In this document: positions 33,584-38,227 of the stretch, in pieces
How the letters are laid out: each line of letters opens with the position of its first letter
How positions within the stretch are numbered: the stretch's first letter is position 1
DNA from: Candidatus Thorarchaeota archaeon
Lineage (GTDB): Archaea > Asgardarchaeota > Thorarchaeia > Thorarchaeales > Thorarchaeaceae
Direction of reading: 5' to 3'
Assembly: GCA_048882485.1 (NCBI GenBank)
Contig: JBHLRP010000009.1
Coordinates: 16,118-74,716 of the forward strand
Length of the DNA: 58,599 nucleotides
Notes under the pieces: model-generated
The model's database searches: none
What the model was told of the DNA's origin: nothing
What the model saw: only the letters and a program-made list of their open reading frames with translations
Made by a program: the position numbers and the translations under genes

Positions 33584-33964
33584 TCAGAGTTTCAGCTCAG
33601 CTTCGCTCTTCCAGAGACCATGAATGTTGCAATACGCAGTAGCCATCAACGTGCCTGGTTTGTCGGTCTTGAAGACGAACTTGGCAACTGGCTCGCTGTA
33701 AATGCCACTACTATCAGGGCCCTCAGCAGATTCACCGTGGTGATCGAATGTACAGTATCCAATCTCTACGGGAAACTTAGCTCCTTCTGGCCAGAAGAAG
33801 AGGTCACACCATTTGATATGATGTGCAGTCGTGTTTGGATGTGGAATTTCCTTGCCAACTTTAACTTTGACGTAGGCCTTCCCATCTTCCACCTTCTTTA
33901 TATCGATAGACGGCACGTGTTTCTCGTTCTTCCAATCATCGGTCTGTATCCATTTCTTTGACAT
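33584..33964 (-). CDS. sor: Superoxide reductase (neelaredoxin, class II SORL)
   Basis: EKHVP, HPNTTAHHIKW, YCNIHGLW; start MSKK after GGAGG. Confidence 0.95.
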   Translation of the reverse strand: MSKKWIQTDDWKNEKHVPSIDIKKVEDGKAYVKVKVGKEIPHPNTTAHHIKWCDLFFWPEGAKFPVEIGYCTFDHHGESAEGPDSSGIYSEPVAKFVFKTDKPGTLMATAYCNIHGLWKSEAELKL

Positions 33965-34048
33965 TGGCTTTCCTCCCTCAAAGCAGTAGGATAGTGGGCT
34001 CATCGAGGTTATACCATAAAACAGTTCTCCTACGTACGCTACCTGTAC

Positions 34049-35542
34049 CTACCTGTCCAATTTTCTAACTTGATTTAGAGTCCACTTTCCCTTTTCAGTC
34101 AATGCATAGTAGCTTCTTTGGCGATTTTCATACGTCTTCTCGACTCGTGTATTAATAATCAGTCCGCTACTAGTCAGCTCAGTAAGGTGCTGGTATATAC
34201 TCGGGATTTTAAGGTTCATTCCATACTCATCCAACAGAGCCTTCCATATTCCATATCCGTAAGACTCACTCCCGGAGAGTATCTGTAGAATGCGGATTTT
34301 GGTCTGCCCTAGCTTCGTTGTGACTTTACGTCCCTCTATCCTACTGAGAAGATGTTCAAGAGGGCCCTTCCCCTTAACAAAAGTCCTTGCTATTTCAGGG
34401 TACTTGAGCCCCATTCCAGTAATGACACATACAATAGACTCCCCTTGTTCTATCTTTCCTTGGTGAATGAGTTTCTGTAAAGCCGCTATAGTAGTGGCTG
34501 AAGATGGTTCTGCGAAAACGCCTTCTCGTCTTGCGAGCTGTCTCACAGCTTCCAGTATTTCCCTATCGGAGGCAGAAATGGCTATTCCGCCTGACTCCTC
34601 GATTGCCATCAATGCTGTGTGTCCACAAACTGGATTCCTTACGCATATGTCAAAAGCTACCGTAGATGCAGAAGACAGCGGAGTGATGGTTTTCATCCCG
34701 CTCTTAAATGCCTCAACAATTGGTGCGCAACCGCTAGCCTGAGCCCCGACTATCTTGGTGTGCGAAGCATCAATCAGTCCAATCTGCTCCAGCTCCCTTA
34801 GGCCCTTCCATATCATTGACACATGACCGCCATTTCCCATTGGGGCAATAATCCAATCCGGTGCAGTCCACTCGAGCTGTTCACATGTTTCATAGACAGT
34901 TGTCTTCTCTCCTTCCATGAAGTGTGGGTTGGACGATGCTATGAGGTGGCTTCTTCTACCCTCTTGGCGTGCCATTGACACTGCTTCCTCATGATCTCTG
35001 ACTATCTCTACATCTGCTGCATAGGCTAGGATCTGGTAGAACTTGCCAATATCCACATTTCCTCTCTGACCGATGAACACCTTGCTCTCAAGGCCAGCCC
35101 GAGCAGCATAGGCAACAAGTGACGCAGCAAGATTTCCAGTAGAGCCACAACAAACAGATTTGAACCCATGCTCCTTCGCTGCAGACACTTCGACTGCGGT
35201 CCCACGATCAATAAACGCTCCCGTCGGATTTGTTGTTTCGTCTTTCAGGTAAAGACACTCAATTCCGAAGTCCTTTGCAAGCCCATCGCACAGGTGTAAG
35301 TAGGTTCCTCCCTCTCCAAGTGAAACCATATTCGCTTCACTTCGAATTGGAAGTAGTTCAAGGTACTTCCAAATTGCCGGCCCTCTCTTTCTGAGCTTCC
35401 TAGGAGTGAATTGGCTTCTTGCCTTGTCGAGGTCATAGGTCACTTCTAGAATCTGTCCGCACATAGGACAAGAATTGATGTATTTCTCCGGAATAAACTC
35501 CTTTCCACACCCAGTGCACCTAAAACCTGACTGAAGTGACAT
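34049..35542 (-). CDS. Threonine synthase-fold protein lacking the PLP Schiff-base lysine, fused to a C-terminal PadR-like wHTH
   Basis: N-terminal CxxC..CxxC, SLGEGGT, NPTGAFIDRG (canonical NPTGSFKDRG), STGN, PMGNGG, EPSSA, TGMGLK; tail YGYGIWK...SIYQHL.EL...GLI...RSYYALTEKG. Confidence 0.88.
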   Translation of the reverse strand: MSLQSGFRCTGCGKEFIPEKYINSCPMCGQILEVTYDLDKARSQFTPRKLRKRGPAIWKYLELLPIRSEANMVSLGEGGTYLHLCDGLAKDFGIECLYLKDETTNPTGAFIDRGTAVEVSAAKEHGFKSVCCGSTGNLAASLVAYAARAGLESKVFIGQRGNVDIGKFYQILAYAADVEIVRDHEEAVSMARQEGRRSHLIASSNPHFMEGEKTTVYETCEQLEWTAPDWIIAPMGNGGHVSMIWKGLRELEQIGLIDASHTKIVGAQASGCAPIVEAFKSGMKTITPLSSASTVAFDICVRNPVCGHTALMAIEESGGIAISASDREILEAVRQLARREGVFAEPSSATTIAALQKLIHQGKIEQGESIVCVITGMGLKYPEIARTFVKGKGPLEHLLSRIEGRKVTTKLGQTKIRILQILSGSESYGYGIWKALLDEYGMNLKIPSIYQHLTELTSSGLIINTRVEKTYENRQRSYYALTEKGKWTLNQVRKLDR

Positions 35543-35552
35543 TGTTTCTCAT

Positions 35553-35580
35553 GCCTATATATAGGCTCAAAATTATATAT
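35553..35580. promoter_or_regulatory. Perfect 14-bp palindrome and TATA box in the divergent promoter
   Basis: GCCTATATATAGGC (35553-35566); TTATATAT (35573-35580). Confidence 0.7.
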
Positions 35581-35623
35581 CCTTCTTTCAGAGAAGAATA
35601 TGATGAATAGAGGATGATACACA

Positions 35624-36217
35624 ATGGAGTTCTTCAAACCCAAAATACGAAGTAGCACTATATTTGTGGCATTATTGGCTGTACTAACTGCACTGACCAC
35701 AATTGCCACAATAGTGATTGCCATTCCACTCCCTGCAAGTTCAGGGTTTCTGAATTTCGGAGATGCACTAGTGATGCTAAGCGGCCTCTTGCTTGGCCCT
35801 CTTGGCGGCTTCATCGCTGGGGGAGTGGGTTCAGCAATGGGTGATGTCATCTTGGGCTATGTCCATTTCGCTCCAATCACTTTAGTTGTAAAGGGCTGCG
35901 AAGGGTTGGTGATGGGACTGTTTAGTAGTCGAGCCAGAAGTGCTAGTCTATTGACAAGGTGGGATGTGGTTGGACTTATCGTATCCTCACTTGTCATGAT
36001 GACCGGATATTTCCTCGCAGAGATTCCGTTGTACGGATATGGAGCTGCACTCGCAGAGTTGCTTACAGCAAACTGGCTTCAAGTGGCAGTTGGTTCAATC
36101 GTCACCGCAATCGTAGGGCCTATTGCAAGGAGCTTTCTCCAAGACACTCTGTATATGTTTGAAGAAGAGGACCTAACTGTAGCTCAGAATGAGCAGCTTG
36201 AAACACCTCTTGAATGA
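35624..36217 (+). CDS. ECF transporter S component (HmpT/PdxU-like)
   Basis: IPLP..SGFLNFGDA, LLGP..G..AGGVGSAMGDV..GY..FAP.TL.VKG.EG. Confidence 0.88.
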   Translation: MEFFKPKIRSSTIFVALLAVLTALTTIATIVIAIPLPASSGFLNFGDALVMLSGLLLGPLGGFIAGGVGSAMGDVILGYVHFAPITLVVKGCEGLVMGLFSSRARSASLLTRWDVVGLIVSSLVMMTGYFLAEIPLYGYGAALAELLTANWLQVAVGSIVTAIVGPIARSFLQDTLYMFEEEDLTVAQNEQLETPLE

Positions 36218-36364: not shown

Positions 36365-37660
36365 TTGGGAGTTTTCGGTATGACGGATAGAAAGAAGCTT
36401 GAGATAGATGTGCAGCGCCTGCACGAGATTAACGAGTTTCTTCTCAAGGAAGACAACCCTCTGATTAATGGTATCATAGATGTCATTGAGAAGCATGGCG
36501 GAGTTGACGAAATCAACAAGAAGGCGAATGAGGCTCGCAGGCTTGAGAACCTAATGGCCAAATTGGAGAAGAAAGACTCTCCCTATGTGAAAGACCTTCA
36601 GTGGCTTCAAGAAAAACGCGATAGCGACTCATTCATCACAATCCCTGATTATCGGAGGAAGATTCTGGGGGGCAAAGCCGACTCCATGGATTTTGATGAG
36701 AGTTTTGCAGTCACACTTGAGATTAGTGCGTGCCAATACTTCCCATGGGTCATAGAGGAGGCGAAGCAATCCATTGAGAAGCAGGAGCTTATGCCTGGCC
36801 GTTTCATCCGAGTAAGAAACATGCATGAACAGAGTGATGACAACGATGTGATTGCTTTTGCCGCAGCGATGCAGATTGTAGACTCCTCTTACGTGGAAAC
36901 TTTAGATACAAAAGGCACGTTTCCAGGACCTGATGGCGCACCTGCCAATATCCACCTAGGAGGTCCAGACACAATCACTGGCTATTTCGGTGGAGTTGGA
37001 ATGCCCAATGATTTTCCTATCAAGTGGGCTGATGAGTACCTTCACTATTATACGGAGTATGGGGTTAAACAAGTACTCAATATCAATCCAGGAAGCGTGC
37101 TCGTGGGGTACATGATGCATAAGCTGGGCATTGATATGGAGTTCAAGATCAGTGTTTTCATGGGAAATGACAATCCATATGCAAGTCTGTGGACATTGAT
37201 GACAGCCAAACTCTTCAGCAGAGATGACGGCACTTCGCCACTGATTGGGTACAATCTATCTAACAGCGTGAACAATGAAACAATAGAGCTATCGGCTTAT
37301 GCTAGGAAAGACTTCGGATTTGAGGATGTGGTCAGAATTGAGCATCACATCACTGAAACATACAAGAGTATTGTACGACAGCCATATGACCGACTTGATG
37401 AGCTTGTAGAATTGGCAGACCATGTCAGGAATATCAGTGCCAAACATGAAGGCGGGACTCCTGAAATTGAATGTTCCTGTGAACATCCGAGTGACATTCT
37501 TGACTACTTTAGAGCAAAGGCTGAAATCATTGATTCTGGTGATATGCCAGCTTTGCTTCACAACTATATGTGTAAACATGATGCTGTGAATCGAACAGCT
37601 CGGGTTTTGACGGAAAACGGTCTGACATTCATAGCTGCACAAAAACTACACAAGAAGTAA
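36365..37660 (+). CDS. Hypothetical soluble protein (431 aa), no family assigned
   Basis: Long ORF with enzyme-like blocks (TLEISACQYFPW, HLGGPDTITGYFGG, SAKHEGG). Confidence 0.8.
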   Translation: MGVFGMTDRKKLEIDVQRLHEINEFLLKEDNPLINGIIDVIEKHGGVDEINKKANEARRLENLMAKLEKKDSPYVKDLQWLQEKRDSDSFITIPDYRRKILGGKADSMDFDESFAVTLEISACQYFPWVIEEAKQSIEKQELMPGRFIRVRNMHEQSDDNDVIAFAAAMQIVDSSYVETLDTKGTFPGPDGAPANIHLGGPDTITGYFGGVGMPNDFPIKWADEYLHYYTEYGVKQVLNINPGSVLVGYMMHKLGIDMEFKISVFMGNDNPYASLWTLMTAKLFSRDDGTSPLIGYNLSNSVNNETIELSAYARKDFGFEDVVRIEHHITETYKSIVRQPYDRLDELVELADHVRNISAKHEGGTPEIECSCEHPSDILDYFRAKAEIIDSGDMPALLHNYMCKHDAVNRTARVLTENGLTFIAAQKLHKK

Positions 37661-37702: not shown

Positions 37703-38173
37703 TTACATCCATGGTTGAATCTGTTCGTCGTAGATACTCTCTAGACGATCCTTATGGTCCTGCTCTTCCTTTGCGAGGCTTTCAAAGACTGTTCTATGAG
37801 ATGTACTTGTGGTCAATTCTGAGAGGCTCTTGTAAAAGTCACGCGCGCTTTCCTCCCGCTTTATAGCTACTATGAGAATATCTTGAGAGGTCGAACCAGA
37901 CTCCAGAGGAATTTCTATGAGATATTTAGAGAGGTCGTGTCCCTCGAATTCCTCAATGGTTGAGCAGGTGAACGTTTCGCAGACTCCTTCACCGAGGGCG
38001 TTCATGAGCTTCTTTTTGTGGCCTTCTTCCTGTTTTGCCAACTCCAATAACAACTGCTTCGATGAAGGCAATTCGACGTTCTCAGAAGCTTTCGTATAGA
38101 AGTCGTATGCTTCTTCCTCCCTCTGAATCGCGAGGGAAATCAATTGATCAAATGAATCTTGGACATCGGACAC
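37703..38173 (-). CDS. Ferritin-like (rubrerythrin-type) diiron protein
   Basis: Duplicated AI.REE.A..FY...LAK.E..H. Confidence 0.88.
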   Translation of the reverse strand: MSDVQDSFDQLISLAIQREEEAYDFYTKASENVELPSSKQLLLELAKQEEGHKKKLMNALGEGVCETFTCSTIEEFEGHDLSKYLIEIPLESGSTSQDILIVAIKREESARDFYKSLSELTTSTSHRTVFESLAKEEQDHKDRLESIYDEQIQPWM

Positions 38174-38227
38174 TGGTATCCCCAAGCTGGGTGGTACAAA
38201 TGCTCGTTTTAAGGATGATGCTCTCAT

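Follow-up and report, generated by a model that had tools for sequence, protein, structure and literature searches.

The window analysed here, 58,599 nucleotides from a Candidatus Thorarchaeota archaeon (assembly GCA_048882485.1, contig JBHLRP010000009.1, positions 16,118 to 74,716), contains two divergently transcribed genes that share a short control region. One encodes a 497-amino-acid (aa) protein, here called ThrC*-PadR, in which a threonine synthase (ThrC) fold without its Schiff-base Lys is joined to a PadR-type winged helix-turn-helix (wHTH). The other encodes the S-component of an energy-coupling factor (ECF) transporter. We suggest that ThrC*-PadR regulates the supply of vitamin B6. 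The features on which the argument draws are as follows.

34049-35542, minus strand: ThrC*-PadR gene, 497 aa, comprising a zinc ribbon, a Lys-less threonine synthase fold, a linker and a PadR winged helix
35459-35518, minus strand: N-terminal zinc ribbon with four Cys (C9, C12, C25, C28), in conserved Cys columns
34415-35326, minus strand: PALP domain (fold-type II pyridoxal 5'-phosphate (PLP) enzyme), residues 73-376, taken as the sensor (PF00291, 3e-63)
34073-34291, minus strand: PadR-type wHTH, residues 418-490 (PF03551, 4e-12)
35210-35212, minus strand: Ile111 codon ATT at the Schiff-base Lys position (sequence reading and HMMER alignment)
34919-34921, minus strand: Phe208 codon at the Arg position of the ThrC motif NPxR.EG (alignment column)
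35543-35623, no strand: divergent control region between regulator and S-component, 81 bp (bounds of the open reading frames, ORFs)
35553-35566, no strand: perfect palindrome GCCTATATATAGGC, candidate operator (sequence, and conservation in at least 12 loci)
35573-35580, no strand: TATA-like element, TTATATAT on the plus strand and ATATATAA on the minus strand (position and spacing conserved)
35624-36217, plus strand: ECF S-component, 197 aa, PdxU2/HmpT-like, candidate B6 vitamer carrier (PF07155, 8e-33)

The greater part of ThrC*-PadR descends from threonine synthase. The protein exceeds the cut-offs of two NCBIfam models, NF006050 for threonine synthase (322 bits against 303) and TIGR00260 (203 against 167), aligns in HMMER to the solved Aquifex ThrC (2zsj) at E 2e-63, and has a core 36-40% identical to the solved ThrC relatives. 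An AlphaFold2 model built from an input of 57 family members (mean predicted local distance difference test score, pLDDT, 92.8) superposes its core on 2zsj with a TM-score of 0.88 and a root-mean-square deviation of 2.0 Å. The four Cys columns of the zinc ribbon are kept both in the PadR-fused forms and in plain ThrC enzymes of the same type. What is extra is the C-terminus, where linker and PadR part add about 110 aa relative to ThrC. The initial annotation had read a wHTH there, and this is upheld by a PF03551 score of 46.4 bits, above the Pfam gathering score of 27, and by the modelled topology, in which helices 413-424, 429-440 and 446-458, a two-strand wing and helix 483-496 follow the wHTH layout. 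The recognition helix has the pattern P-x-[VI]-Y-Q-H-L-x-E-L, with Y450 and Q451 nearly invariant and H452 invariant across 67 fused representatives.

This architecture belongs to a family and not to a single protein. Both PALP and PadR are present in all 120 nearest homologues (the best 120, 52-95% identical to ThrC*-PadR), and the Lys is absent from all 116 of these with a readable motif, its place being taken by Ile or Leu. Among 150 representatives of 50%-identity clusters, which formed our wider sample, about 67 carry PadR, about 69 are plain and 10 are long (610-633 aa); every plain and every long representative has the Lys. A tree built on the PALP core, with the Lys column masked, has a branch (SH-aLRT support, a likelihood-ratio measure, of 98) that sets 58 rows apart: 56 Lys-less, PadR-fused proteins and two others, P0155 and the short P0169, in which the PadR part was not found (for P0155, no PadR Pfam match). 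We call this group, to which the window protein belongs, clade A. A second fused group of nine, clade B, is recognised by the motif NPTNSF[K/R]DR; at the site, five of its rows have Arg, two have Lys and two have some other residue. Since a single branch (support 91) divides the fused groups from every plain enzyme, PadR and ThrC may have been fused in a single event. Clade B is common in Asgard genomes, and the 25 clade-B loci that were fetched divide into 8 with Lys and 17 with Arg; Lys is retained in one GTDB family and Arg occurs in others. The consistent loss of Lys on which the initial annotation relied thus stands for clade A, where it extends from the 116 close homologues to all 56 PadR-fused representatives, and fails for clade B, whose members have Lys or Arg and still lack the Arg of NPxR.EG. 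A pattern search derived from the full-length alignment, with the Lys position left free, returned mostly ordinary ThrC and placed four fused loci beyond Asgard.

Some observations on the wider family stand apart from this argument. Clade B was noted at L035-L060, L063 and L067-L072 in Asgard genomes, and some genomes, such as G134, hold two fused paralogues. Among the long homologues (P0201 and P0188 are examples), the only one scanned, P0172, ends in a LeuA allosteric/dimerisation domain (PF08502), and for this reason the long, Lys-bearing proteins are presumably feedback-regulated enzymes.

The loss of the Lys is unlikely to be an artefact of reading. Minus-strand positions 35230-35198, with the codons AAT CCG ACG GGA GCG TTT ATT GAT CGT GGG, encode NPTGAFIDRG, and Ile111 is aligned by HMMER with the Lys of NPTGSFKDRG in the solved ThrC structures 2zsj, 2d1f and 6cgq. 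Conversion of ATT to AAA or AAG takes two changes, and a strain-variant contig from other sequencing runs, with 10 differences over 35120-35461, has none in this codon; those runs, X6 and X7, leave 35496-35579 uncovered. The replacement was described in the initial annotation, as were the retained motifs STGN, PMGNGG, EPSSA and TGMGLK, and both descriptions proved correct. The column holds Lys in 79 of 79 enzyme representatives, and Ile, Leu, Val, Met and others in clade A.

A second loss accompanies the first. At residue 208, which is Phe in ThrC*-PadR, 43 of the 79 enzymes have the Arg of NPxR.EG, clade A has Phe, Leu, Tyr or Ile, and clade B has Thr, Ser, Ala or Ile; the Arg is missing from every fused protein examined, the Lys-bearing clade-B forms included. 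We presume that this Arg holds the phosphate of O-phosphohomoserine in Thermus ThrC. Clade A has further changes, Asn240 to His or Leu and Ala169 to Tyr. Nearly all other enzyme-conserved columns are kept in the fused proteins, including the Gly-rich loop (P234, G236, G238), N137 of STGN, F110, D112, R113, E210, K213, T214, E345, P346 and T375-G-x-G-L-K. Across the fused family E77, T80, K100, E102, P106, D112, R113, S141, Y145, Q170, T214, E218 and G238 are invariant, and N105, F110, G136, G236, T375, G376, G378 and K380 are at least 90% conserved. In ThrC structures, the Gly-rich loop and other core columns presumably contact the PLP phosphate and ring. The pattern suggests a cofactor site that has stayed under selection and a substrate site that has been dismantled. 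In fold-type II enzymes the Schiff-base Lys is also the catalytic base. Because this Lys is Ile and the NPxR.EG Arg is Phe, the threonine synthase fold of ThrC*-PadR is most likely no longer catalytic.

The genome has a gene for the enzyme elsewhere, a point that the initial annotation had asked to confirm: a 413-aa open frame at C2:52235-53200 contains NPTGSFKDR and EPYRVEG, and so both the Lys and the Arg. A second Lys-bearing, ThrC-like paralogue (G000:C23:44056-45051) has CPSGSFKDR, Gln in place of the NPxR.EG Arg, a zinc ribbon and no HTH.

The divergent partner of ThrC*-PadR points to vitamin B6. The S-component scores 114 bits against PF07155 (cut-off 26.7) and is the sole strong match to that family in the 3.96-Mb genome, which also encodes two EcfT (CbiQ) homologues. 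Among solved structures, chain S of 4HZU comes closest to it (E 4e-17; RibU reaches only 4e-3), which bears out the HmpT/PdxU-like label given initially, and its NCBIfam matches all fall under their cut-offs. 4HZU_S is Lactobacillus brevis HmpT/PdxU2, which was originally thought to carry hydroxymethylpyrimidine (HMP) and whose substrate was identified as pyridoxamine (PMC4860826); PdxU and PdxU2 both belong to PF07155 (PMC9997740). When the S-component is aligned to 4HZU_S, three HmpT pocket residues are identical, Y120 (Y129), N140 (N150) and Q143 (Q153), and a fourth, E41, is conservatively replaced by D47.

We gathered 16 distinct clade-A loci and found the association between regulator and B6 supply genes to be both widespread and flexible. 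The S-component is divergent from the regulator in 12 of the 16, with a GNAT (Gcn5-related N-acetyltransferase) gene inserted between them in one, and these 12 come from Thor-, Sif-, Loki- and Hod-labelled and other Asgard genomes, one Bathyarchaeia metagenome-assembled genome (MAG) and two Nitrososphaerota MAGs. At two further clade-A loci the place of the S-component is taken by pdxS-pdxT: G007 has regulator, pdxS and pdxT in tandem on one strand, and in G041 pdxS-pdxT is divergent from the regulator. Other flanking genes vary between the clade-A loci. Clade B shows the linkage too, with the S-component convergent or in tandem at 16 of 25 loci, and in G097 an Arg-type clade-B regulator lies 1.2 kb from pdxS-pdxT. 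The conserved ECF neighbour and the pdxS/T synteny that the initial annotation proposed to look for are both present, the former across phyla and in several arrangements, the latter as a regulator adjoining pdxS-pdxT in three genomes of three GTDB families. Because the linkage persists through three arrangements and swaps uptake for synthesis genes, it argues for a shared function of the regulator and the B6 supply genes, rather than inherited gene order.

The distribution of B6 synthesis genes fits with this linkage. We found pdxS in 24 of 151 sampled Asgard genomes and in none of 26 from the window's family, and most sampled Asgard lineages are probably B6 auxotrophs, the DXP (1-deoxy-D-xylulose 5-phosphate)-dependent route having been outside the search. 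The window's own genome (90.5% complete) had no match to pdxS or pdxJ and only a weak match to the PdxT family, which proved to be something else. Among the sampled Asgard genomes, clade A and pdxS co-occur only in G007 and G041, and the two are adjacent in both. Of four TACK genomes considered, only the one without the S-component pair was found to have pdxS; the other three, which have the pair, gave no match.

The control region offers a candidate for the site of regulation. The centre of the palindrome is upstream of both start codons, 17 bp from the regulator ATG and 64 bp from that of the S-component; 6 bp separate the palindrome from the TATA-like element, which lies about 34 bp from the regulator ATG. 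By this geometry, TTATATAT/ATATATAA could be a TATA box shared by both directions. The layout ATATATAA(G)-N6-CCTATATATAGG recurs with 0-1 mismatches at Thor, Sif, Loki-labelled, Hod, Bathyarchaeia and two Nitrososphaerota loci, and with 2-3 mismatches at a few further regulator loci, and it persists where the flanking DNA is unrelated or GC-rich. The exact 12-mer core of the palindrome occurs once in the window's genome (G000) and once in the Bathyarchaeia genome G151, there at the regulator locus. Since orthologues in other phyla have the core conserved in their upstream regions, the palindrome is not a chance match. The 81-bp spacer and the perfect palindrome were described accurately, with a TATA-like element where the initial annotation read a TATA box, and the conservation of the palindrome, left as a check, reaches from Asgard to Bathyarchaeia and Nitrososphaerota.

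Copies or variants of the element are found at synthesis genes. In G041 the spacer between pdxS and the regulator contains a TATA-like element followed by two copies of the motif, CCTCTAAATATAGG and CCTATATATAGA. The G154 regulator adjoins no B6 gene; its own promoter has the variant CCTATATGTCG, and a near-copy, CTTATATGTCC, stands behind a TATA-like element just upstream of pdxS. Clade-B loci have another repeated dyad upstream of the S-component gene, AAGTT-N4-AACTT, which overlaps ACTTATATAAGT.

Several candidate readings and sites were set aside. The palindrome itself was rejected as the regulator's TATA box, since its centre, 14-24 bp from the ATG in most loci, is too close, and since ATATATAA lies upstream at about -34. 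The only 1-mismatch palindrome site in the window's genome, C20:41444, was discounted as a chance occurrence because it is within an ORF. A loose pattern (at most 2 mismatches) gave 113 matches in G152 against 40 for a control, and because the pattern is so common there these matches carry no weight.

We think it probable that ThrC*-PadR is a one-component, B6-responsive repressor of B6 supply genes. In this model, a phosphorylated B6 vitamer, most likely PLP, would bind in the former cofactor site, reversibly and without a covalent bond, the loss of the Lys having turned the covalent cofactor site of ThrC into a reversible gauge of B6. The PadR winged helices at the C-termini of the liganded dimer would then engage the palindrome CCTATATATAGG. 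This site has the TATA-like element on one side and the regulator start on the other; if the element also serves the S-component gene, the palindrome is upstream of that promoter too, on the side of the TFB recognition element (BRE). Archaeal repressors bound at such positions block assembly of the pre-initiation complex. Given where the palindrome lies relative to the shared TATA-like element, its occupancy would block assembly in both directions and repress both genes. When B6 is scarce, the regulator would leave the palindrome and allow the PdxU2-like S-component to be produced. Archaea with PLP synthesis of their own have this regulator and operator ahead of pdxS-pdxT instead. The domain architecture, the two lost residues within an otherwise retained core, the gene linkage, the conserved and unique operator and the lack of any pdxS or pdxJ match in this genome are observations; we infer the ligand, the DNA binding, the sign of regulation and the transporter substrate, and with them the physiologically sensible logic by which a B6-loaded regulator would repress uptake or synthesis. 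With somewhat more reserve, though we still lean toward it, we suggest that these proteins are the first transcription factor family in Archaea to respond to B6 and, across all domains, the first regulator with a sensor from a fold-type II PLP enzyme, spread over Asgard and TACK, with the operator ATATATAA-N6-CCTATATATAGG, and controlling either ECF uptake or PdxST synthesis. Our literature searches found no paper describing a ThrC-PadR or ThrC-like regulator.

A number of observations weigh against this model. Two of the six HmpT pocket residues are altered in the S-component, H84 to K90 and Q87 to E93; its substrate is uncertain for this reason, and the pocket is compatible with a related substrate, short of proof. 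B6 genes are missing from the surroundings of two of the 16 clade-A loci, Odin-labelled L033 and Nitrososphaerales L080. No clear pyridoxal kinase of the PdxK/PdxY type was found in the window's genome, and the salvage route that should follow uptake is therefore incomplete on paper. The pattern CYTATATGTCS has three sites genome-wide in G154, namely the regulator's promoter, the pdxS promoter and one within an ORF, but it was derived from the two promoters it matches, which makes this evidence supportive and not independent; a rough estimate for the match at pdxS is p 0.02-0.1. The incompleteness of MAGs bounds every statement of absence made here. Of two weak PF08543 matches considered as PdxK (C6:55224-55619 and C7:49337-49669), one is a ribokinase-like kinase and the other a YjeF-type NAD(P)HX repair protein, neither a clear PdxK, and the third G154 site, being inside an ORF, was set aside as chance.

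The regulator and its B6 regulon could be as we propose and the effector a non-aldehyde vitamer, that is pyridoxine 5'-phosphate (PNP), pyridoxamine 5'-phosphate (PMP), pyridoxine or pyridoxamine, with the loss of the Lys removing a preference for the aldehyde. We consider this unlikely, though far from negligible. The surroundings of the missing Lys have become more hydrophobic (Lys to Ile, Arg to Phe, Asn to His or Leu, Ala to Tyr), the nearest characterised carrier prefers pyridoxamine (PMC4860826), and clade B, with the Lys kept in some lineages, could be the PLP-specific form. The conserved Gly-rich loop and other ThrC-core columns suggest instead a phosphorylated ligand, which leaves PLP and PNP or PMP unseparated. 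PLP, moreover, is the end product that matters physiologically, and bacterial PdxR has it as effector (PMC5320631). It is improbable that ThrC*-PadR is a two-ligand sensor of the kind represented by GabR, in which PLP is resident and Thr, Ser, homoserine or O-phosphohomoserine provides the signal through an external aldimine. MocR regulators such as GabR do act in this way (PMC5320631), and the domain is of ThrC descent with most active-site residues kept. Without the Lys, however, there is no transaldimination partner, and the conserved partner genes are a B6-type S-component and pdxST, not genes of the Thr pathway. The loss from all fused proteins examined of the Arg presumed to hold the substrate phosphate also weakens the alternative raised in the initial annotation, a Thr-pathway metabolite as ligand.

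Another explanation, to which we give little credence, is that the S-component carries a non-B6 substrate (HMP/thiamine precursor, riboflavin or other), that the regulator senses this compound, and that adjacency to pdxST is incidental. The Pfam family takes its name from riboflavin carriers, and this possibility is consistent with the first assignment of HmpT to HMP (PMC4860826), with NCBIfam matches below cut-off and with the two pocket residues that are unlike HmpT. It would leave unexplained why, in G041, the TATA-plus-palindrome layout stands before pdxS-pdxT in place of the S-component, and why the regulator of G007 is followed by these two genes; the match to RibU is 13 orders of magnitude weaker than that to PdxU2, and a PLP-enzyme fold would be odd as a sensor of HMP or riboflavin. 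Finally, ThrC*-PadR might still be an enzyme, threonine synthase or another PLP lyase, with PadR as a moonlighting or autoregulatory addition, but this is highly improbable. The residue that would serve as catalytic base, as is established for fold-type II enzymes, is absent from 56 of 56 PadR-fused clade-A representatives, the NPxR.EG Arg is gone as well, and a complete ThrC with both residues is encoded elsewhere in the genome. The points in its favour are the NF006050 score, the database name of threonine synthase, and the existence of archaeal bifunctional enzyme-regulators, RbkR being listed as both regulator and enzyme (PMC8305020).

The B6-responsive repressor that we propose would have a counterpart in the bacterial MocR regulators (PdxR, GabR, TauR), which likewise reuse a PLP-enzyme fold as a one-component sensor fused to a winged helix. 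The parts differ, since MocR proteins combine an N-terminal GntR-type wHTH with a fold-type I aminotransferase domain, in contrast to the fold-type II domain and C-terminal PadR of ThrC*-PadR, and MocR proteins are known to keep the PLP Lys that clade A has lost. MocR has been reported absent from Archaea (PMC5320631), and the resemblance looks like convergent design, not homology. PdxR regulons include pdxST and the pdxU transporter (PMC5320631); the same targets are implied for ThrC*-PadR, by gene linkage only (S-component at 12 and pdxST at 2 of 16 clade-A loci). RimI/RimL-type acetyltransferases also recur in bacterial PdxR regulons (PMC5320631). In a parallel to this, GNAT acetyltransferase genes flank the regulator/S-component pair in L030, L032 and L034.

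Other known systems share single elements with ThrC*-PadR. With ThrC (EC 4.2.3.1; NF006050/PRK08197; 2zsj, 2d1f, 6cgq, 1uin) it has in common the zinc ribbon, the fold and nearly all conserved core residues; it differs in lacking the Schiff-base Lys and the NPxR.EG Arg, in its additional linker and PadR, and in forming a separate clade. Like the PadR family (PF03551; PadR, LmrR), it has three helices, a two-strand wing and a further helix, and a palindromic candidate operator in its own promoter region. Known PadR proteins are small, with about 110-180 aa, and their ligands sit in or between the wHTH and the C-terminal helices, whereas the wHTH of ThrC*-PadR is attached to a 400-aa, enzyme-derived sensor. 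ThiR is an archaeal, enzyme-derived vitamin regulator, and both ThiR and RbkR have an HTH fused to a domain from the metabolism of the vitamin concerned. They differ from ThrC*-PadR in fold and in vitamin; moreover its sensor would derive from an enzyme that uses B6 and does not make it, and appears catalytically dead. The S-component, for its part, is placed by PF07155 (COG4720) with PdxU and PdxU2-HmpT, HmpT/PdxU2 being its best solved relative, and it differs from PdxU2/HmpT in being archaeal and in the Lys and Glu that stand for H84 and Q87.

If the model is correct, it would fill a gap in archaeal B6 regulation, the B6 regulators on record being those of Bacteria (MocR/PdxR types); according to a 2025 preprint on Asgard archaea, regulation of the PdxST pathway is still poorly characterised (10.1101/2025.11.07.685452). 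It would also provide a clear case of the passage from pseudoenzyme to sensor, and a convergent counterpart to MocR built on another PLP fold. The presence of a dedicated, regulated uptake gene in Asgard lineages that are probable auxotrophs bears on cultivation media and on models of syntrophy.

There is also a consequence for annotation. Judged from its sequence, ThrC*-PadR is a homologue of ThrC and not a functional member of that family, and "threonine synthase" is the name given to its relatives in public records. The equivalog model NF004170 (PRK05638, "threonine synthase") has 442 positions, which PadR-fused proteins match over the whole length; of the six Asgard proteins that score above its cut-off, every one has Arg instead of Lys. 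Because ThrC*-PadR passes NF006050 and fused proteins match NF004170, pipelines label probable regulators as threonine synthase, and through this systematic misannotation a metabolic reconstruction can credit an organism with a Thr pathway step in error.

The next gene after the S-component, immediately downstream on the plus strand (36380-37657), encodes a 426-aa protein that has no Pfam or NCBIfam match and is nonetheless very highly conserved. Its best 120 homologues are 78-100% identical, and all 8000 scored candidates pass E 0.001 and are named "hypothetical". An AlphaFold2 model (pLDDT 74.9) has an N-terminal helical bundle and a strand-helix body resembling a triosephosphate isomerase (TIM) barrel. 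Foldseek gave weak matches (E 4e-4 to 1e-2, TM-score about 0.3) to 3-deoxy-D-arabino-heptulosonate 7-phosphate (DAHP) synthase, lysine 5,6-aminomutase and enolase-type barrels, and an Atlas feature search returned unnamed or unrelated clusters only. The gene adjoins the S-component gene in L031 and is one gene away in L030.

Two further neighbours are of note. A gene for a desulfoferrodoxin-type superoxide reductase (33584-34003, minus strand) begins 45 bp beyond the regulator gene, on the same strand, and a rubrerythrin gene (37703-38227, minus strand) lies beyond the 426-aa gene. Both recur as neighbours in L030 and L031 and not in the other clade-A loci. They may reflect a link between B6 and oxidative stress, or may be a matter of local synteny only.

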